Origin: Cyanobacteriota bacterium
Lineage (GTDB): Bacteria; Cyanobacteriota; Cyanobacteriia; SKYG9
NCBI GenBank assembly: GCA_025054735.1
Contig: JANWZG010000001.1
Coordinates: 1 to 58,198, forward strand
DNA: 58,198 bases
Reading direction: 5' to 3'
The notes under the pieces were generated by a model. The model ran no database searches and had not been told where the DNA came from. It was given only the letters and a program-made list of their open reading frames with translations. How positions within the stretch are numbered: position 1 is the first letter of the stretch; each line of letters begins with the position of its first letter. Below, piece by piece: positions 3,421-51,820 of the stretch. Position numbers and translations under genes: made by a program.

Positions 3421-3825
3421 TCATTGCCGAAAGCTGAAGGTATAGCCTGCGTAGGTGTTACCTTCATATAACACAATCAGCCACACTTGGGGGTCAAACT
3501 CCATCGGATACGCCTCGCGATCGAGCATCGTCCCGGTATCCCCCTTGATCTGAGACAGCCGACAGTAGGGAACCCCAACGATCGCCTGTACCGTCTGCTT
3601 AGAATTTGGTGATGCCATCGTTAGCAACTGGGAGAGCTGATGGCGAGACAGTACAGCTCCTGAGCGAATGGTCTCTCGGCATGTTTCCTGCCTAGCGCTG
3701 GTCAAGCGCCAGCCTGACCCGATCGTAGACAGACCAAACTGGTGCACTAGCAATGCCAAGCCTGCCAACAGAAATGCCCCAGCTAGCCAGAACTCTGGTT
3801 GCACCTTAGTCGCTCTATGGCTCAT
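3421..3825 (-). CDS. Hypothetical membrane-anchored protein
   Basis: 134-aa ORF with one N-terminal hydrophobic helix (FWLAGAFLLAGLALLV). No recognisable motif. Confidence 0.4.
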   Translation of the reverse strand: MSHRATKVQPEFWLAGAFLLAGLALLVHQFGLSTIGSGWRLTSARQETCRETIRSGAVLSRHQLSQLLTMASPNSKQTVQAIVGVPYCRLSQIKGDTGTMLDREAYPMEFDPQVWLIVLYEGNTYAGYTFSFRQ

Positions 3826-5155: not shown

Positions 5156-5285
5156 GGTGTGTTGTCGATTCGGCAGAGATCCTTGATATTGGAATGTTGG
5201 CCTTTTTCTAGTGAGCTTATCGGGCTATTCAGTCACGTTGAGTGAGCAGTCAATCACCTATTCATAAAGAAAATAAAAAATTTGG

Positions 5286-5315
5286 TTACAAAAATTCATT
5301 AATTTGTCTTACAAT
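5286..5315 (+). promoter_or_regulatory. Candidate sigma70-type psbA promoter
   Basis: TTACAA (5286-5291), 18 nt, then TACAAT (5310-5315) in an AT-rich tract about 75 nt upstream of the psbA ATG. Motif reading only. Confidence 0.35.
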
Positions 5316-5387
5316 TGTGGCTACCGACTCAAACAGTTCGGTAACCATTCATAACTTGTTCATTTGTACTTGTACTTGGACTTATAG

Positions 5388-6473
<1,086 letters not shown>

Positions 6474-27889: not shown

Positions 27890-28055
27890 GTTCAGTCCCA
27901 CATATGCTTCGGCTAGCACCTGTGGTAACCTGTGCGATCGTTGTGCAGACTACCATTTTTGGTCACTATCTAGTAGACAATCGGCCTATCAAAAATCGAA
28001 AGACTTTCTTAGAAGACTTTCCTGCTTGTGTATCCCTTATCGCACAGTTCTACCT

Positions 28056-29366
28056 ATGACAACAGAATCATTAGTTATTGACCAGTCTCAAGCTGAGGAA
28101 GATTATCCACTTTCCCCAGTGCCCATGAGCGCTCGTCGCCCCATTTGGTCGTTGGCACCACTGTTAATGGGCTTTACTCTCACATCCACGACTCTATTTG
28201 CAGGCGGCAAACTCGGCAATGCCTTCAAGTTCACTGACATTATCTGGATCACGATCGTAGGCAATCTTCTCCTGGGCATTTATTGCGCAACCCTCGGTTT
28301 TATTACAGCCCGTAGTGGGTTGAACACAGTCCTCATGGCCCGATTTAGCTTTGGCAATATTGGTTGCCGCTGGGTCGATTTTATTCTCGGTTTTACCCAA
28401 ATCGGCTGGTTCGCGGTCACCAATGCCTTCGTTGCTGATGCTCTCAACACCCTAGTGGGAATGCCAAAATCTCTCAACTGGCTGGTGATTTTATTCGTCA
28501 CTTATGCATTTTGTGCTACTGCCTACTTTGGCTATACTGCAATGGATTGGCTCAGTCGCCTAGCTGTGCCTGCTATGTTGATCTTGATTGGCATCAGCAT
28601 GACGATCGCCACCAAAGATGCTGGTAGCTTTGCCCAACTGCAAGCGATTACCCCTAAAGAACAACTGGCAGCAGGTGCCGCCCTTGCCGTCGTCATTGGT
28701 TCGTTTATTTCTGGGGGCACCCAAGCTACCAACTGGAGCCGTTTTGCTGATACCCCCAAAAACGCCATCTTGAGCACCCTGGCTGCTTTTACCTTTGTCA
28801 ACGGTAGCCTCGTCTTCATTGGTGCCTTTTGCACCCTGGTTTATGGCAGCCAAGACATTGTAGAAGCCATGGCTAAGCAGGGTATTCTGTTCGCGGGCTT
28901 GATTCTTCTCATCCTCAACGTGTGGACAACCCAAGACAACACTATTTACGCCTTCTCTGTGGCAGGGGCAAACTTCTTTCGCAATAGCAAGCGCAACTTA
29001 TTCGTGTTGGGTGGGGCAACCTTAGCCTTAATTCTGTCCTTAGCTGGCATCTACAGCCTACTGATTCCCTATCTGATTTTTCTAGGTGCCGTCATTCCTC
29101 CCGTGGGGGGTATTGTCATGGTAGACTTTTGGCTACGTCATCAGGGCCAGTTTCCTCCCCTAGAGTCCAGGCTACCAGCCTTCAACTGGGCTGGTGCAAT
29201 TGCCTATGTGGTTGCTTCGGTAGTTGCCTATCTATCGGGGCAGATGAATCTTGGGGTGGCTCCTATTAATGGTATTGTCGTAGCGGCTATTCTCTACGCC
29301 ATCTTGATAAAGATGATTCCTCAGCCAATTCGAGAGCCAGTTCAAGAGCCAGTTCAAGAGAGCTGA
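28056..29366 (+). CDS. NCS1-family purine/cytosine permease (CodB-like)
   Basis: The start is placed at ATG 28056; the track ORF starts at TTG 28026. It has about 12 TM helices and NCS1-like segments (FAGGKLG, LMARFSFG, GGTQATNWSRFA). Confidence 0.7.
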   Translation: MTTESLVIDQSQAEEDYPLSPVPMSARRPIWSLAPLLMGFTLTSTTLFAGGKLGNAFKFTDIIWITIVGNLLLGIYCATLGFITARSGLNTVLMARFSFGNIGCRWVDFILGFTQIGWFAVTNAFVADALNTLVGMPKSLNWLVILFVTYAFCATAYFGYTAMDWLSRLAVPAMLILIGISMTIATKDAGSFAQLQAITPKEQLAAGAALAVVIGSFISGGTQATNWSRFADTPKNAILSTLAAFTFVNGSLVFIGAFCTLVYGSQDIVEAMAKQGILFAGLILLILNVWTTQDNTIYAFSVAGANFFRNSKRNLFVLGGATLALILSLAGIYSLLIPYLIFLGAVIPPVGGIVMVDFWLRHQGQFPPLESRLPAFNWAGAIAYVVASVVAYLSGQMNLGVAPINGIVVAAILYAILIKMIPQPIREPVQEPVQES

Positions 29367-29425
29367 TCAAGCATCGCAGACAAGCTGTCACTATCAGCTT
29401 AGGAACACAACCTAGTAACACCTGT

Positions 29426-29459
29426 GGTCATGGAGTAGTGTCTCTGTGACCTTTTTTTT
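29426..29459 (+). terminator. Intrinsic terminator after the permease gene
   Basis: GGTCATGGAG pairs with CTCTGTGACC (10-bp stem with two G-U pairs, loop TAGTGT), followed by T8 (29452-29459). Confidence 0.7.
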
Positions 29460-29493
29460 GCAAAATGTTTTGTGAAAAATGCTGCGTCAAGAT

Positions 29494-29515
29494 TTAATCA
29501 TAACGTTATGATTAA
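29494..29515. promoter_or_regulatory. Candidate parS / par operator: perfect 22-bp palindrome TTAATCATAACGTTATGATTAA
   Basis: Read directly, 27 nt upstream of the parA ATG. Its 20-bp core TAATCATAACGTTATGATTA recurs inside parB at 31068-31087. Confidence 0.55.
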
Positions 29516-29541
29516 CTCAACAACCTACTACACCTGAGCCT

Positions 29542-30297
29542 ATGAGTCGGGTAATTGCCCTGTTTAACCAAGCGGGAGGCGTAGGTAAATCTAGTGTGAC
29601 GATGAACCTAGGCTATAGCCTCGCTCAGCACGATCGGCGTGTGTTATTGGTAGACCTTGACCCCCAAGCTTCCTTAACTCTATTCATGGGGCTAGAACCC
29701 TCAGAATTGCAACAAACCATCTACGAGTCCTTGCTGGAAGACAAAGAACTGGCTATTCACAGCAATCTGCACGGCATGGATCTTGTACCAGCCAACATTC
29801 GCTTGAGTGGGGCTGAACTGGAACTGGTTACTGCTGACATGCGCGACCTACGTCTGAAGGAAGCCTTGAGGCCAGCCCAAAAACACTATGACTTCATCTT
29901 GGTGGATTGTCCTCCTAGTCTGGGAATTCTAAGCTACATTAGCTTGGTAGCAGCCCACTATGTGTTGGTGCCTATCCAAACGCAATACAAGGCGTTTTGT
30001 GGTACGGAAATGTTACTGAGCACAGTGGCGCGGGTACGATCGCGGGCTAACCGCACTCTCAAAATAGCTGGTTTTATCCCTACAATGTACACTGCTCGTA
30101 ACTCTCAGGATGTGCGGGCCTTGGAGGCCATTCAACAGCAGATGGCTGAGTTTGGGACGGTGTTTGCACCGATCGTCCGTGCTACTGCCTTTGCTGATGC
30201 TGCCGAAGCCCACCAACCCTTAGCCATCTACAGTCCTCGCCATCCATCCCTAGAAATCTTCGATGACATTGCTACCTACTTAGAAAGCCTATCTTAG
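29542..30297 (+). CDS. parA: ParA/Soj-family partition ATPase
   Basis: 251 aa with a deviant Walker A (FNQAGGVGKSSVT), LLVDLDPQ and ILVDCPPSLG. Confidence 0.9.
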   Translation: MSRVIALFNQAGGVGKSSVTMNLGYSLAQHDRRVLLVDLDPQASLTLFMGLEPSELQQTIYESLLEDKELAIHSNLHGMDLVPANIRLSGAELELVTADMRDLRLKEALRPAQKHYDFILVDCPPSLGILSYISLVAAHYVLVPIQTQYKAFCGTEMLLSTVARVRSRANRTLKIAGFIPTMYTARNSQDVRALEAIQQQMAEFGTVFAPIVRATAFADAAEAHQPLAIYSPRHPSLEIFDDIATYLESLS

Positions 30298-30564
30298 CTG
30301 GTAGACACTACGTTAACCCCCAAGGGAACTGCCCATGAAAACGTTAGCAACCATCCCCTTGTGCCTGATCCAACAGTTTCCTACACCTTCCGCAGCTACT
30401 TTGAACTGCGGTTTGCTCCGTCTGAATATCTTGGCAAATTTGGCTTTTACCTTTAAGCGCGACCACCTCAAGTTGCCTCAGTCCGGTCTGCGGACGATCG
30501 CTGACCTTCAGCAACGTACCGCCACGTGTCTTTCCTATACCGAGTCCCCAATGACCTCAGAACC

Positions 30565-31494
30565 ATGACCCGCAAACGCGACCAACCATTTCGTCAAATC
30601 AAGGCCCAGGGCCTAGATGCACTGTTTGGAGATGCACCACCACCAGCAGGTGAATACATTTCCCTAGACCAGATTGTTTTACCAGCGCAACAACCCCGTC
30701 GCTATTTCGACCCTCACAAGATGGCGCAACTGGTGCAGTCGGTGAAAACTCACGGCATCTTGGAGCCATTGATTGTGCGTCCTTTACCCGATGGTCGTTA
30801 TGAGTTAGTAGCCGGAGAGCGGCGCTATCGGGCTGCCCGTGAGGTGGGGTTAACGGAGGTGCCGATCGTCAAGCGTGACCTCACTGACCAAGAGGCACAG
30901 CAATTTGCCCTTGTGGAAAATCTTCAGCGGGAAGACCTAAACCCCGTCGAAGAAACAGAGGGAATTTTGCACCTGTTGGCCATTAACCTGAACTGTGAGA
31001 TTGCTGACGTGTCATCCCTGCTCTATCGCATGAACAATGCTGCCTTAGGAAACATTAAGGAAGAATCTAATCATAACGTTATGATTAGCGACGAGGCGAC
31101 GATCGTCCAGGATGTGTTTCAAGGCTTAGGGCTAATGAGCTGGGAATCATTTGTACGCAATCGCCTCCCCCTGCTGAAGTTACCTGAAGACGTACTAGAG
31201 GCATTGCGCCAAGGCCAGCTTGCCTATACTAAAGCCAAGGAAATTGCCCGCATTAAGGACTCTACATTACGGCAAGAACTGCTACAAACCGCGATCGCGG
31301 AGGATTTATCTCTCGCTGATATCCGCACTCGCATTGCTGAACGGATGACCAAGCTAGAAACTACTCCACCATCATCCCTAAAGCAACGGTTCAAGACTAT
31401 CGTTCGGCAAGTCAGTAAATCTAACCTTTGGGATGACCCCAAAAAAAGCAAGCAACTGGAAAAACTGTTGTCGCAATTAGAGGCAATGCTGTAA
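30565..31494 (+). CDS. parB: ParB/Spo0J-family partition protein
   Basis: The start is placed at ATG 30565 (MTRKRDQPF...GLDALFG); the track ORF starts at GTG 30526. It has ParB box motifs (GILEPLIVRP, YELVAGERRYRAAREVGL, VENLQREDLNP). Confidence 0.9.
   Translation: MTRKRDQPFRQIKAQGLDALFGDAPPPAGEYISLDQIVLPAQQPRRYFDPHKMAQLVQSVKTHGILEPLIVRPLPDGRYELVAGERRYRAAREVGLTEVPIVKRDLTDQEAQQFALVENLQREDLNPVEETEGILHLLAINLNCEIADVSSLLYRMNNAALGNIKEESNHNVMISDEATIVQDVFQGLGLMSWESFVRNRLPLLKLPEDVLEALRQGQLAYTKAKEIARIKDSTLRQELLQTAIAEDLSLADIRTRIAERMTKLETTPPSSLKQRFKTIVRQVSKSNLWDDPKKSKQLEKLLSQLEAML
31067..31088. promoter_or_regulatory. Second candidate parS: perfect 22-bp palindrome CTAATCATAACGTTATGATTAG inside parB
   Basis: Read directly. 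It encodes ...SNHNVMIS... in ParB. Confidence 0.55.
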
Positions 31495-31535
31495 CCCTCA
31501 CTGCCATATGCGCTCTAGCATCATTGTTCCACTAG

Positions 31536-31934
31536 TCAGGTTGGCAACCAGGAAACATGGGCAGAGATAATGCGCCAGCCTACACCAGGGAAACGATGCC
31601 AAAGCTGGGTCTGACGACCATTATGCGGCGGCTTACCCACAACACCGCCATAGAACTCTAGGGTGACCATAGCTACATCAGTGCCGATCGCCAACACCTT
31701 GAAGTTTTTTACCTCTCGCTGAATTCGCAACGTTGCTGGCCCTCTCGCTTGCCGAAAGGCTCGGATAGCCTCAATGCCGTATAAGTTCTCAGTGGCACCA
31801 AAGCGGATAACGTCAGGGGAATCCCAAAATAGAGCATCCATGGTCTCTAAATCGTTCTCACACAATGCGGTTTCATAGCGCTGATACAGAGCAGTGACCT
31901 CAGCTATAATCGCAGGTTGATTGATCTCCATCAT
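31536..31934 (-). CDS. HpxZ/AtzH-like NTF2-fold protein (DUF3225)
   Basis: 132 aa. EINQPAIIAEVTALYQRYE...NLYGIEAIRAFRQAR...WRIISAHVS closely follows the HpxZ pattern as remembered. Confidence 0.7.
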   Translation of the reverse strand: MMEINQPAIIAEVTALYQRYETALCENDLETMDALFWDSPDVIRFGATENLYGIEAIRAFRQARGPATLRIQREVKNFKVLAIGTDVAMVTLEFYGGVVGKPPHNGRQTQLWHRFPGVGWRIISAHVSWLPT

Positions 31935-33178
31935 GGGTTACAGAATCGTTCCTCTGCTAAACATGCCAATTCAGCCTGCAACACTGCTTGCATATCTGCA
32001 TCTCCTTGGTTTTGAGCAAGCTGCAATGCTCTCGTGTAATAGTTACCTGCCAAGATCGTTAACCCAACTTGCTGATGCAGTTCTCCTAAGCGTCGGTATA
32101 CTGCTATGGATTGGTCATCGCGTCTGGTTAGGGATGTTAACTCTGCGATCGCATTGGTAATGAAAAAATTCTCAGCCCAAATCTGAGTGCGTGCCAGCGT
32201 CTTCGCCACTGGTGTTAGTGGTTGATTCGATACTTGAGTTACTCTGTCAAGCCGATCTAGGTTGCTTTTGGCGTTGCTGAGTTCGTTGGTTGCAGTGCTA
32301 AAGTCTTGCACAATAAACTGTTGACGATCGACATGAGCAGCAGCCATGTTATCAGACACATACAAGGTATAGCGAGTAGGGGGCAATTGCCCTGGGTAAT
32401 CCACCCTTGTAGTAGATAGTTGCGTTTGCCAAAAGACATCGCTGCGTTCAAGACTGATCAGATAGCGAGATGCTGTCGCCACACCACGCCAACTCAGCAT
32501 CAGTTTTTTAGCTACCGTTGGTGGACTGGTTATCGGTAGAGCCTGTTCCTGCCGCAAAAGAAATCCCTTATCTCCATAAGCCTCTACCACAAAGCGATAG
32601 TTGCCTGCTGACAGTCTAGGGTCACGATCACTGGTCGGATAACTGAGTTGAGTGGTAATGGTTTCTCCTTCTGCAAAGGGCACCGACTTAAACCAGGGTA
32701 CTTGAAACAATTTCACCTGATAACTCGCGGCCCGATTTGGCCCATACCAGGCCAATGTGGGCCTAGCCCCGACAACGATCGTCTGTCGAGGGGTAATGAT
32801 GTAAGGTTTGCTTGCGTCACGGCCACTCGTTGGGTCACCAATCTGAAATAGCGATAGCTCTGTAGAACGAGCATTAGAAGCAACGCTGGGGCAAATTTGT
32901 ACAAAACCGCGGGTATTGCCGTCAGCCGGAGCCGCGATCGGTAACCCATTTGGACACTGCACCATGGCAATTGCTCCTGGTGGCACCCTCAACAAATCAC
33001 CAGCCCGGAGGGTTTGACCAGCTTGGGGCTTGCGGAATTCACCCCGTCCTTGCGGCTTGATCAGCACACCTCCACTAAACTGCACAATTTGCCCAGTAGG
33101 TCTACGCCCTGCTGCAACGGCACTATTGGCAACAGTAACCAAAACCATCACCGTGCAAATGCAAACCTTTGTGTTCAT
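31931..33178 (-). CDS. Secreted hypothetical protein with a C-terminal TPR-like region
   Basis: The start is placed at ATG 33178 (MNTKVCICTVMVLVTVANSAVAA, a signal peptide). This overlaps the stop of the upstream gene (ATGA). The track ORF extends to 33268. Confidence 0.5.
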   Translation of the reverse strand: MNTKVCICTVMVLVTVANSAVAAGRRPTGQIVQFSGGVLIKPQGRGEFRKPQAGQTLRAGDLLRVPPGAIAMVQCPNGLPIAAPADGNTRGFVQICPSVASNARSTELSLFQIGDPTSGRDASKPYIITPRQTIVVGARPTLAWYGPNRAASYQVKLFQVPWFKSVPFAEGETITTQLSYPTSDRDPRLSAGNYRFVVEAYGDKGFLLRQEQALPITSPPTVAKKLMLSWRGVATASRYLISLERSDVFWQTQLSTTRVDYPGQLPPTRYTLYVSDNMAAAHVDRQQFIVQDFSTATNELSNAKSNLDRLDRVTQVSNQPLTPVAKTLARTQIWAENFFITNAIAELTSLTRRDDQSIAVYRRLGELHQQVGLTILAGNYYTRALQLAQNQGDADMQAVLQAELACLAEERFCNP

Positions 33179-48553: not shown

Positions 48554-51500
48554 CTAATCAGGGCGTTGGAGGTCAGCGGGGGGCAGCCAAGTTGTGATTC
48601 GCCCCTCTGCTGTCAGACAAGCGATGCCATCACTGGTGATGCTATGGACAATGAGAGTGCCGGGATACTGACGCTGCAAGTTGGGATGGTTACCGATGTA
48701 AGCAACTCGATCGCCAACCGCAAGGGGACAAGGGACGATCGACGCAGCATCTACAGCCTTTAACGTTGGATCAATTTCATCAACACTTGTCTGAATATCC
48801 CCCCGCGACGGGCTATGGGAAGTTGATCTCTCCAGCAACGATTGATCAATACCATTTCCAGCATCATCTCGGTCATTAGTTTCATCGCCCTGGACAGATC
48901 CAGAGCCAGGAGGACTGCCACTCAAGGTGGATGATTCTTTCACATCGTCTGGGAAAAGGGGTACAGGGACTTGGCTGATCACCTCTCTTGCTGGGGGGGA
49001 TAGAGGATATGCTTCTGCGTCTAGCTGGGGTCTAGTATCGGCGGCAGCAGTTGATGGCTGATCGGGCAATTGTGGATCAGGATCAATGCCAATATCTGGC
49101 TCTGGGAAAGGGTCGATCGTCCCTGAATTGATCAATTGTTGATGGTCAGCATCCCTCTGATTCTCGATGAGAGAAAAGGAGTTGAGGGGGGTAGACAGGC
49201 TGGCAGTTTCCTGTAGAGTAGGCACACTCTGACCAGAGGGTATATACACCGACTCAGCACCCACGCCCTCGATCGTCCCGTGACCCGCAGCAACCAGGGT
49301 TTGCATCAACTGGCGAATTTGCTCCACGGGCATCCGCCGCAGGGCATAAACACCGCTCTTAGCTTGGGAAGCTGTGACCCTGCCCAGTTTTTCGGCATAG
49401 CGTTGCAGTTTCAGGCTAGGGCCTTCTAAACCAGCGTCGGGAGAGTTGTGGGTGTAAATCAGGCGGTATTGCCAGAGGTAGTAGGCAGCTAGTTCGATCG
49501 CCTTTTCCATGGTGTCGCCGGTGATCACTTGGGTGGGACGATCGCCGCGCAGGGTCGCATTCACCAAATGTAGCCATAGTGCCAGCCGACTGGTGTAAGA
49601 CTCTATTTTGGGATAGACTGCCCGCAGTCCCACTGCTGATTCCGTAATCTGAGCATCGACTAATTGATGTTGCCAGGTTTCTAGCAGTTGTTTTGCCTCG
49701 TAACTGAGCAGGTAGTCTTGGGGAGGAAGCTGCTCCAGGTCGCGGTAGAGGCGCATCAAGGCTTCAGAGATGCCTGTATCTTGGTCATCTTGCAACAAAC
49801 GGAGATAGCGCCGGGGGAGTTTGGGGGCACAGAGCAACCAACGGGCAAAGCTACCATTGAAATCAGTGTGGTCGCCCATGAGCTGGCTCAGGGTTTCCCA
49901 TTGGTAGGCTCCGGTGCGAGAGACCGCAGACTGGGCAAGGCAAACGGATTTTTCGGCACGATCGTACAAAATCGCTGCCCCATTCCACTGGTCTAGTTCG
50001 GCCTCTTCATCGGCACCCACACCACCTCTGTACATATTGCGAGATTTAACATTGCCCACCAATTCATCGCGATAGTAGAGGATGCCGCGTGGGTTTTCGC
50101 TGTGAATACGTTGCAGGGTTTCCAGGGTGACATCCTTAGTAACATAGCGCTTGCGAGTAGGGGGCTGGCGATAGTCTCCATCCTGGGACTTGTTGGCAGC
50201 CTGTTGCTCTGCTTTGTAGTCGGCAAGGTCTAGTTGGTAGCGATCGTGTGCCTCCTTTTCCAAGGCAATTAGAGGATCGATAATCACCCGCTGCACTGGC
50301 GTTTTCAAGGAGCCAGAATCTGCTACCACCGCTGTCCAAAACACCATTGGTTGAGTATATTTGGCACTAGGCTTGACTACGACCCGTGCTCCGGTACCAA
50401 TGCGCGAAGCAGCAGCAGGCAACAACGTCGTGAATAGCATTTCTGGAGCCGTTGGCATGGCCCTAGCTGTATCAATCAATTGTTGAGCAAAGGCTGGCTC
50501 TAGGTAACGGTGTAGATTGAGTTGCGTGTGGCGGATGTTCAGCAGGTTGTGCAGTTTTTGAATGGCATCGGCTAGGTTGGTTTGCAGGTCAACTTCAATC
50601 ATCAAGGCCTGTGCTAGGTGAGAAATATCACGGTAGTAATAGCCTGCCGTTTGTGCCAACTCCATCAGGGCAAACTCTCTCTGTCCTGGGGAATCGTGCT
50701 GCCGCAGAATCGTGAGGATCTGATCCCGGAGAGAGGGAGAAGCTGACGGAGGATGGAGAACAGGGGATGGAGGGACAGCAAGGGCGGCAGCAGTGAGGAA
50801 ATCTTGCCAGGTGTAGCCGACATCAAGGGCATTGGAAACATCCCAGCCAGCGATCGGGCAATCCTCTGGCATGGGCACTTGGGCAATGCGTCCCCGATCG
50901 CCCAGCACCAGCGCTAGTTTTTCTGCCCCAGCCTCTCCTGGAACTACACCATCTTTACGAGGTTCGTCATTACGATCAAAGAAAATCGTCACTGTACCCG
51001 GTAAGGGATCCAACTGGTCAAGGGGTGGTATGGTGCCGCAGCCTGCGGTAGAACAAGCAACAGCAATCGATGCCCCCTGCTGTTGTGCTTCCCAACCAAG
51101 ACGCATCCCATCCCATTCCCCTTCACAGAACCAAGTCTCTGTAGCATTCTCTGGGTGATAGGTCAGCCACACCGTTGCCGGAACCCCGTACTGGCTCCAG
51201 CGGCTCAGACCATCGGGACGATCGTCCCCCGTTAGCCATGGTGCAATGCGTAACTTGCGGTAAAACTGTCCCGGCTGGTTGGGTACAGGAATGTGCAGGG
51301 CGATCGCCCACACATAGCGTAACTGCGGGTGATCCTTGAGGGGATAGCGCTCCAACCCAAGCTGGAAATGGCGGATCATGTCACGGGTAAAGCCGCGACC
51401 CTCTAGCCAGCAAAGAGCCTGCTGTTGATCTGGTTGACTCGCACTGAGCAGACGATCAACTGACTGCTGCACCTGCCGTCGGCTAAAGACCTGTGGCGAA

Positions 51501-51820
51501 CGCAGCCCGACCTTTGTGACCTTCGTGTCTTTGTGGTGTTCTTGTTTGCAGTGTTCTTGAACAGAGAACCCAGCACTCGCAGCAAACGGTAGCGGTGCAT
51601 TCAACGCCGCCCGGATCTGCTCTGGCGTGCAGCCGCGATAGCACCAATACTTGCCGTTGTCATTGACCTGAAGGTTTTTCTGCTTGAGCTTGCCGTCCTG
51701 TTCGCAGCTAGGACAACTCGCCCGCCCATTGTGAACTTCGATGTAATTACGAATGTCAAATTTACACCCGTTGCGGGTGTGCGCTACAATCTTACTAAGC
51801 ATGATAAATATCCAGCTCAT
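48554..51820 (-). CDS. Large primase-helicase-like replication protein (zinc finger + Toprim-like + DUF3987-like), plasmid or mobile-element type
   Basis: 1088 aa. It has a Cys-rich finger (CPSCEQDGK...WCYRGC) and acidic Toprim-like motifs (WFCEGEWDG, TIFFDRNDEP). A DUF3987-like centre follows (PRGILYYRDELVGN, GGVGADEEAELDQWNG). The protein ends in a P/S/D-rich low-complexity linker and a small C-terminal beta domain (VGDRVAYIG...LIVHSI). An alternative start is ATG 51802. Confidence 0.8.
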   Translation of the reverse strand: MSWIFIMLSKIVAHTRNGCKFDIRNYIEVHNGRASCPSCEQDGKLKQKNLQVNDNGKYWCYRGCTPEQIRAALNAPLPFAASAGFSVQEHCKQEHHKDTKVTKVGLRSPQVFSRRQVQQSVDRLLSASQPDQQQALCWLEGRGFTRDMIRHFQLGLERYPLKDHPQLRYVWAIALHIPVPNQPGQFYRKLRIAPWLTGDDRPDGLSRWSQYGVPATVWLTYHPENATETWFCEGEWDGMRLGWEAQQQGASIAVACSTAGCGTIPPLDQLDPLPGTVTIFFDRNDEPRKDGVVPGEAGAEKLALVLGDRGRIAQVPMPEDCPIAGWDVSNALDVGYTWQDFLTAAALAVPPSPVLHPPSASPSLRDQILTILRQHDSPGQREFALMELAQTAGYYYRDISHLAQALMIEVDLQTNLADAIQKLHNLLNIRHTQLNLHRYLEPAFAQQLIDTARAMPTAPEMLFTTLLPAAASRIGTGARVVVKPSAKYTQPMVFWTAVVADSGSLKTPVQRVIIDPLIALEKEAHDRYQLDLADYKAEQQAANKSQDGDYRQPPTRKRYVTKDVTLETLQRIHSENPRGILYYRDELVGNVKSRNMYRGGVGADEEAELDQWNGAAILYDRAEKSVCLAQSAVSRTGAYQWETLSQLMGDHTDFNGSFARWLLCAPKLPRRYLRLLQDDQDTGISEALMRLYRDLEQLPPQDYLLSYEAKQLLETWQHQLVDAQITESAVGLRAVYPKIESYTSRLALWLHLVNATLRGDRPTQVITGDTMEKAIELAAYYLWQYRLIYTHNSPDAGLEGPSLKLQRYAEKLGRVTASQAKSGVYALRRMPVEQIRQLMQTLVAAGHGTIEGVGAESVYIPSGQSVPTLQETASLSTPLNSFSLIENQRDADHQQLINSGTIDPFPEPDIGIDPDPQLPDQPSTAAADTRPQLDAEAYPLSPPAREVISQVPVPLFPDDVKESSTLSGSPPGSGSVQGDETNDRDDAGNGIDQSLLERSTSHSPSRGDIQTSVDEIDPTLKAVDAASIVPCPLAVGDRVAYIGNHPNLQRQYPGTLIVHSITSDGIACLTAEGRITTWLPPADLQRPD
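51762..51790 (+). promoter_or_regulatory. Candidate sigma70 promoter on the strand antisense to the rep gene
   Basis: TTACAC (51762-51767), 17 nt, then TACAAT (51785-51790), read directly inside the first codons of the rep ORF. Confidence 0.4.

Follow-up and report, generated by a model that had tools for sequence, protein, structure and literature searches.

The window analysed here, a stretch of 58,198 nucleotides (nt) from a Cyanobacteriota bacterium (contig JANWZG010000001.1 of assembly GCA_025054735.1), carries a ParA-ParB gene pair together with two perfect 22-bp palindromes. One of them, TTAATCATAACGTTATGATTAA (copy 1), lies just upstream of parA, where 26 nt separate its end from the ATG at 29542. 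The other, CTAATCATAACGTTATGATTAG (copy 2), lies within parB, encodes ParB residues S168 to S175 (SNHNVMIS), and is centred on the codon boundary N171/V172 (31077/31078). The two copies share an identical 20-bp core, TAATCATAACGTTATGATTA. A preliminary description of this DNA had reported both palindromes, and its coordinates were confirmed. It had also proposed that they are noncanonical parS sites. We consider it very probable, on computational grounds, that the palindromes do serve the adjacent ParA-ParB partition system as its parS.

Are the palindromes specific to the par locus? Within the window, the core had no match beyond the two copies when up to three mismatches were allowed, and 100 dinucleotide shuffles of the window, which served as the chance control at the same threshold, yielded no match at all. 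We then scanned the assembly (3,997,674 bases in 715 contigs, 95.8% complete). Only two sites matched the core with three or fewer mismatches, and both were at the par locus; the full distribution was two sites at zero mismatches, none at one to three, two at four, and 16 at five. The preliminary description had held that a core common throughout the genome would speak against parS, and the core is not common elsewhere. Perfect palindromes centred on AACGTT with arms of at least 7 were limited, genome-wide, to the two window sites and one unrelated 14-mer. The canonical parS sequence, TGTTNCACGTGAAACA, was not enriched in the genome (5 matches at two mismatches versus 10 for a reversed control), and it has only the central ACGT in common with the window sites. 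The palindromes are thus unlike canonical parS, as had been suggested, while they sit in or next to a par operon and are rare elsewhere on the replicon, as is expected of a parS.

The closest relative with DNA at hand (locus L108 in our numbering) encodes a ParB that is 83% identical to that of the window at the amino acid level and 74% identical at the nucleotide level. Both 22-mers are conserved there at 22 of 22 positions, and their locations are unchanged, while the surrounding intergenic DNA has diverged. Along the parB alignment we found three exact runs of at least 17 nt, one of which contains the in-gene site. We conclude that the site is a DNA-level feature under selection and that it is specific to the par locus.

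The assignment of the two genes to a ParA-ParB module was borne out by profile searches. ParB matched PF02195 (105 bits, E = 1.6e-30) and TIGR00180 (119 bits, cut-off 58), and its helix-turn-helix (HTH) matched PF17762 (E = 1.1e-10). The ParB-CTPase motifs GERRYRA (residues 84 to 90) and ENLQRE (118 to 123) are both present and are invariant across 50 homologues. An AlphaFold model of the protein had a mean predicted local distance difference test score (pLDDT) of 82, and the closest folds returned by Foldseek were Noc, ParB, and Spo0J (probability 1.0), as expected of a ParB-type HTH domain. The model has a single low-confidence internal loop, residues 161 to 175, in which residues 167 to 171 fall below a pLDDT of 50. 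It is in this loop that the peptide encoded by copy 2 is found. No other true ParB_N protein is encoded in the genome. We take the window to hold the genome's only ParABS system, with a parS that is lineage specific.

ParA matched PF13614 (176 bits) and PF01656. Its Walker A motif (residues 9 to 17, 29566-29592) reads NQAGGVGKS and lacks the signature lysine, so that it departs from the deviant Walker A consensus KGGxxGK[ST]; the protein is still a P-loop ATPase of the ParA superfamily. The lysine is missing throughout the ParA family, in which the motif is NQ[AS]GGVxK[ST]. Another lysine, K150, is present in the window protein and is conserved in 68 of 69 family members. It is comparable to K151, the lysine that stands in for the signature residue in a plasmid-borne McdA-like ATPase from Cyanothece PCC 7424 (PMC7182216). 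In the window, an ATPase of this sort has a true ParB, not a McdB-like protein, as its partner. The features of the locus are collected in Table 1.

Table 1. Features of the par locus, in window coordinates
Feature	Position	Strand	Description
Terminator-like hairpin	29426-29461	+	10-pair stem followed by a T-run, TTTTTTTT; ends the upstream cytosine-permease gene
Palindrome copy 1	29494-29515		Candidate parS before parA, probably also an operator; central in the only room for a parA promoter
parA	29542-30297	+	Soj-like ParA ATPase of 251 amino acids, without an N-terminal DNA-binding extension
parA-parB spacer	30298-30564	+	267 nt; decayed, frame-shifted remnant of a 214-amino-acid gene of unknown function
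parB	30565-31494	+	ParB/Spo0J-type protein of 309 amino acids: N-terminal CTPase-fold domain, HTH domain, C-terminal helical region
Codons N157-N158	31033-31038	+	At the end of helix 146-160; predicted to read the outer arm at ±7 to ±9
Palindrome copy 2	31067-31088		Candidate intragenic parS
Codon N199	31159-31161	+	Part of recognition helix WESFVRNRLPLLK (residues 193-205); predicted to read base ±4, which is T here

Of roughly 8,000 homologues in all, we compared the locus with about 100 parB genes, which came from the genomes of cyanobacteria, from complete plasmids, and from Thermus pTT27. The exact 20-mer of the window was found in none of the related loci, even at five mismatches, and this absence led to the finding that each locus has its own spelling of the site. 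A palindrome of at least 16 bp with no more than one mismatched pair was present in 95 of the roughly 100 homologues, at lengths of 16 to 30 bp. In about 88 of them it was centred exactly on the boundary homologous to N171/V172. The window gene has all the features of this clade: a palindrome of at least 16 bp, an AAC/GTT centre on an Asn/Val codon boundary, and a loop between an extra helix and the HTH in which the palindrome lies.

Codon choice at the centre of the palindrome is nearly fixed. Among 86 unique genes, the Asn codon was AAC in 84 and the Val codon GTT in all 86; elsewhere in the same genes AAC and GTT account for 38% and 33% of the respective codons. The arms behave quite differently from the centre: the 86 genes carry 42 distinct 18-mer spellings, and all arm changes are compensatory. 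In the protein alignment, N171 is invariant and V172 nearly so, while the flanking loop residues are hypervariable. Because the centre lies on a codon boundary, the flanking codons form reverse-complement pairs (H/M, D/I, Q/L, R/S, E/F). Arm spellings are constant within ParB clades and switch between clades. We conclude that selection on the site acts at the DNA level.

The first parS of Bacillus subtilis lies within spo0J, and the preliminary description had called a parS in or next to parB the classical arrangement. It was right to place the site inside parB but understated the case, for the loop is a dedicated one and the site keeps to a single codon boundary within it. Likewise, the module was described as having two copies. 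Both copies are real, but it is the intragenic one that is conserved and that defines the family. None of the first nine related loci that we examined has a second copy upstream of parA; hence, the upstream copy is not the conserved feature. The suggestion that the system is of a plasmid or secondary-replicon type held up as well: the ParB family of the window is common on cyanobacterial plasmids (at E ≤ 1e-20 it is represented in 362 plasmid records), and the best plasmid match, at 61% identity, is on a plasmid of Allocoleopsis PCC 7113. The same family is also found on some chromosomes.

Some parB genes have an expanded loop that holds two in-frame copies of the palindrome, 13 to 27 codons apart. 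Examples are L040 (open reading frame 1073-2251, minus-strand orientation; 26 codons apart), L061 (7620-8714; 27 codons), and L079 (4953-5885; 13 codons). Each copy in these loops encodes xxxNVxxx.

If ParB reads the arms of its own site, residues of its DNA-binding elements should track the arm bases. We searched for such residues and set apart the loop columns encoded by the palindrome, for which covariation with the site is trivial. Two elements of ParB stood out. Where residue 199 is Asn, the base at ±4 is T (44/44); where it is Ser or Thr, the base is A (26/28); and where it is His, the base is C (6/6, Thermus included). Residue 158 tracks position ±9, with Asn accompanied by A in 62 of 63 cases and His by G in 14 of 16, while Lys at 157 goes with GG at ±8/±7 (11/11). 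The window ParB fits this code: its N199 is matched by T at -4 and its N158 by A at -9. When every alignment column was scanned against base -4, N199 was the best column outside those encoded by the palindrome (p = 2.3e-8; the next column, 7.5e-4). Against base -9, N158 was the top column of all (p = 1.7e-6). Shared ancestry was taken into account by parsimony on the ParB tree, where 14 of 16 changes of base -4 fell on a branch that also carried a change of residue 199, compared with one to five for seven control columns. HMMER alignments to the solved structures of Noc, Spo0J, and ParB place N199 at the conserved Asn of the recognition helix (xSTVANxLRLL), which is listed among the parS-contacting residues (Jalal et al. 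2020, PMC7383237). We conclude that the site sequence coevolves with two DNA-binding elements of ParB, the product of the gene in which the site lies.

Copies of the site also occur outside parB, and they are always spelled as the in-gene palindrome of their own locus. In the window, L022, L032, L040, and L070, they stand shortly before parA, at distances of 27 to 115 nt. In L021, L028, L100, L103, and L104, the position of the copies indicates that they are probably just upstream of a divergent parA, although tblastn did not detect a divergent parA at these five loci. Downstream of parB, copies are found on pCC7120epsilon, on a Tolypothrix plasmid, and in L088, which has five. In L080 (G331:C4), 12 exact copies of the locus's own palindrome, GAGGAAAACGTTTTCCTC, follow one another with a strict 211-bp period from +1009 to +3330 downstream of parB, a tandem array that is, by its arrangement, centromere-like. 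On a complete 3.8-Mb cyanobacterial chromosome, 8 of 12 sites (ACGGAAAACGTTTTCCGT, at most one mismatch) lie within 30 kb of the chromosomal parB (G106:C1:477252-507432), so that in this lineage the system has the appearance of a chromosomal ParABS. Several complete plasmids have no copy at all beyond the one in parB.

Taken together, the restriction to the par locus, the footprint in L108, the palindrome throughout the family, the own-locus spelling of extra copies, and the covariation with ParB residues all lend computational support to the noncanonical parS proposed in the preliminary description.

The nearest precedent from experiment is in Thermus. The ParBm protein of T. thermophilus binds a palindrome inside parBm and forms foci in Escherichia coli when expressed alone (Li et al. 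2015, PMC4409726). ParBm of HB27 pTT27 is clearly homologous to the window ParB; its domains follow the same order, and it has the loop as well. At the position that corresponds to the window site, parBm (L047, 18938-19831, minus strand; nt 471-490 of the gene) carries TAGGGACAACGTTGTTCCTA, with one mismatched pair, which spells AT-rich codons within a GC-rich genome. ParBm also fits the residue-base code (H199 with C, N158 with A, K157 with GG). The published parSm, AAGGACGCGTCCTT, is a different, 14-bp palindrome, situated 170 nt downstream of the loop site. The half-sites of the two are similar (AGGAC versus GGGAC), but their spacing differs. We considered the published site as the positional homologue of the window site and ruled it out, since it lies at codon 220 rather than in the loop. 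T. brockianus retains an AACGTT-centred palindrome in the loop and has no counterpart of AAGGACGCGTCCTT. The published ParBm foci and electrophoretic mobility shift assay (EMSA) data may reflect the parBm loop site TAGGGACAACGTTGTTCCTA or be shared with it.

Deinococcus homologues (L110, D. radiodurans pMP1; L111, a plasmid of Deinococcus sp. QL22) lack both the loop and the in-gene palindrome. Because they lack the two together, and because some members of the family have two in-frame copies, the loop seems to exist mainly to host the site. In L111, three copies of TGAATTACGTAATTCA flank parAB (1920-1941, 2019-2042, and 3795-3810), two of them upstream of parA and one just after parB. The flanking copies of QL22 suggest that the site either was extragenic before its capture into the loop or has been lost from the loop.

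We next turn to the region upstream of parA. The cytosine-permease open reading frame (28026-29366) is ended by the hairpin terminator, and the parA promoter is therefore confined to the roughly 80 nt before the parA start. Reading by hand, we noted a -10-box-like TATGAT (29507-29512) in the right arm of copy 1 and another promoter candidate, TTGTGA-17-TTTAAT (29470-29498). Because copy 1 fills the middle of this promoter region, the geometry suggests that the upstream copy probably also lets ParB repress the parAB operon, that is, acts as an operator.

The spacer between parA and parB is of a different nature. In L108 an intact gene for a 214-amino-acid protein (5256-5900) sits between parA and parB, and tblastn of this protein against the window spacer gave matches in two frames (51% over 39 amino acids and 41% over 76). 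The C-terminal end of the remnant (LYRVPNDLR) overlaps the start region of the window parB. The remnant plays no part in the partition mechanism.

How would such a system work? From established ParB biology, a ParB dimer would bind each two-fold symmetric site through its HTH. The base pair at ±4 would be read by residue 199 of the recognition helix and those at ±7 to ±9 by residues 157 and 158, and conserved ParB residues would recognise the invariant AACGTT centre. Once at the site, ParB would bind cytidine triphosphate (CTP), close into a clamp, and spread to form the partition complex; CTP binding is proposed because the GERRYRA and ENLQRE motifs are intact. The Soj-like ParA would then position and segregate this complex. 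The intragenic copy would be the ancestral and obligatory centromere of this ParB family, and since its sequence codes for part of a disordered ParB loop, gene and site would be inseparable by recombination. The copy upstream of parA would serve as a second loading site.

Could the palindromes instead be operators only? ParB might be a KorB-like regulator that controls its own expression through a promoter site and an intragenic roadblock and that has no centromere role. Copy 1 does lie within the promoter region of about 80 nt, copies stand at similar places before parA at other loci too, and KorB is among the structural relatives of ParB. But the conserved site is not at a promoter, many complete plasmids having the in-gene copy alone, and the arrays of 5 to 12 copies downstream of parB and the 30-kb chromosomal cluster resemble centromeres. 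Moreover, a ParA partner is conserved in the operon, and the operator and centromere roles are compatible with each other. We regard a purely regulatory function as improbable.

Nor do we find it plausible that the in-gene copy acts as an mRNA hairpin affecting stability, translational pausing, or attenuation, with the symmetry of the DNA incidental. The copy is transcribed, would form a stem of 9 to 10 bp, and occupies a fixed position in the gene. Yet identical copies occur where DNA is untranscribed or otherwise transcribed (upstream of parA promoters and, in either orientation, in the downstream arrays), the centre is an invariant palindromic AACGTT that a hairpin loop does not need, and the arm bases covary with ParB helix residues. 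An Rfam scan of 29000-32000 matched no RNA family. An RNA element is very unlikely. We give just as little weight to a site for some other protein linked to par loci, such as a resolvase or recombinase, a restriction-modification enzyme, or a host regulator. Plasmids of this family often have tyrosine recombinases and restriction-modification genes nearby, and AACGTT is a typical 6-bp target of the type II kind; the palindrome, at 20 to 30 bp, is far longer than a restriction-modification target, however, its arms are locus specific and covary with ParB residues, and no other gene was consistently linked to it across the loci examined. Finally, the idea that the palindrome arose by chance or merely reflects a conserved peptide, for which the conserved N171 and V172 might be cited, is effectively refuted by the fixed synonymous choice at both centre codons, by the reverse-complement pairing of codons for otherwise hypervariable residues, and by the identical 20-mer in noncoding DNA with no match among the shuffles.

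We are left with the parS interpretation, and we lean towards a broader one. In it, the window ParB would belong to a large, undescribed clade in Cyanobacteriota and Thermus, both plasmid and chromosomal, whose parB genes house the centromere in a disordered loop set aside for it and whose specificity follows a readable code. We hold this joint view to be somewhat probable, with less assurance than the identification of the two palindromes as parS.

Several points weigh against these interpretations. A promoter scan called no sigma-70 promoter over copy 1, and the operator role rests on geometry. The Thermus palindrome demonstrated by EMSA, AAGGACGCGTCCTT, is not at the homologous position, and so the Thermus precedent backs a parS inside parB in general terms alone. 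The probabilities for the centre codons (about 1e-33 for AAC and 1e-41 for GTT) count related genes as independent; this concern is lessened by the 42 arm spellings and by the tree-based tests. ParB copies that reside together in one genome showed no demonstrable excess of differing pairs over random ones, with 32 of 37 pairs different and 5 similar against a background of 10% similar. The 58-kb contig, moreover, could belong to a chromosome, a chromid, or a plasmid. Incompatibility avoidance was considered as the driver of diversification and rejected for want of a signal, random pairs being different in 90% of cases compared with the 32 of 37 coresident pairs.

How does this family compare with known partition systems? 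Canonical ParB/Spo0J and the window ParB share the fold and the motifs, and both have a two-fold symmetric site with an ACGT centre. The window protein differs from canonical ParB in that its DNA-binding domain has an inserted extra helix and loop (residues 146 to 175). In the ParB/Noc specificity switch, a few residues in or next to the recognition helix set specificity (PMC7383237). The recognition-helix Asn is invariant in ParB and Noc (N178 in Caulobacter), whereas in the window family that position varies among N, S, T, H, and A. The Bsr systems of Burkholderiales secondary replicons have replicon-specific 16-bp parS sites with a central CG and bind them in a narrowly cognate manner that suits a multireplicon genome (PMC5450999). 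Like the window family, they consist of related ParBs that each have their own palindromic parS, with a common centre and differing arms. Unlike the AACGTT-centred sites of the window family, which are 18 to 30 bp long and stand at one parB codon boundary, the Bsr sites are not described as fixed inside parB. KorB-OB of RK2 offers a further parallel: KorB is a ParB-family CTPase, and its palindromic sites double as centromere and operators. It is a structural match to the window ParB at 22% identity, much more distant in sequence, and its OB sites are dispersed at promoters, not placed in korB at a fixed codon. In the part of the literature that could be searched, the open-access part, we found no description of a loop-embedded site or of a residue-base code and none of the centromeres of cyanobacterial plasmids and chromids. 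A parS inside parB was known already from Thermus; what appears to be new is the placement of a putative centromere at a constant codon boundary in the ParB loop, together with a readable code.

The gene content of the wider contig is mixed with regard to replicon type. Its genes include a selD-like gene, psbA, polysaccharide-synthesis genes, SelU, and rmlD, as well as a DUF3987 Rep-like gene. The DUF3987 protein (1,087 amino acids; 48554-51820, minus strand) is encoded 17 kb from parB, and plasmid pMIC7113.01 likewise has a DUF3987 gene close to its parAB. The contig may thus derive from a chromid or plasmid, or such an element may have integrated into it. The par neighbourhood is partly syntenic in two relatives. 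In the relative L109, whose ParB is 81% identical to that of the window, the identical in-gene palindrome is kept in parB without a parA upstream; a DUF6036 gene and a 96-amino-acid gene lie where parA would be, and synteny with the window is seen downstream, in the SnoaL-like and TPR genes.

What would this arrangement mean for the family? The parS of its members would be predictable from sequence alone, being found where the Asn and Val codons of the ParB loop meet, and, if the broader reading is true, the sequence of ParB would be enough to deduce parS on hundreds of replicons. Nature would have provided over 40 variants of ParB/parS specificity, in which two reader positions are pinpointed, and natural members of the family could give non-cross-reacting ParB/parS pairs for DNA labelling and locus tagging. 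A testable doubt is also raised over the true parS of the Thermus megaplasmid: the functional parSm of pTT27 would be an AACGTT-centred palindrome, either instead of the published site or beside it. More generally, the family bears on how DNA-binding specificity evolves when a single gene encodes both the site and its reader.

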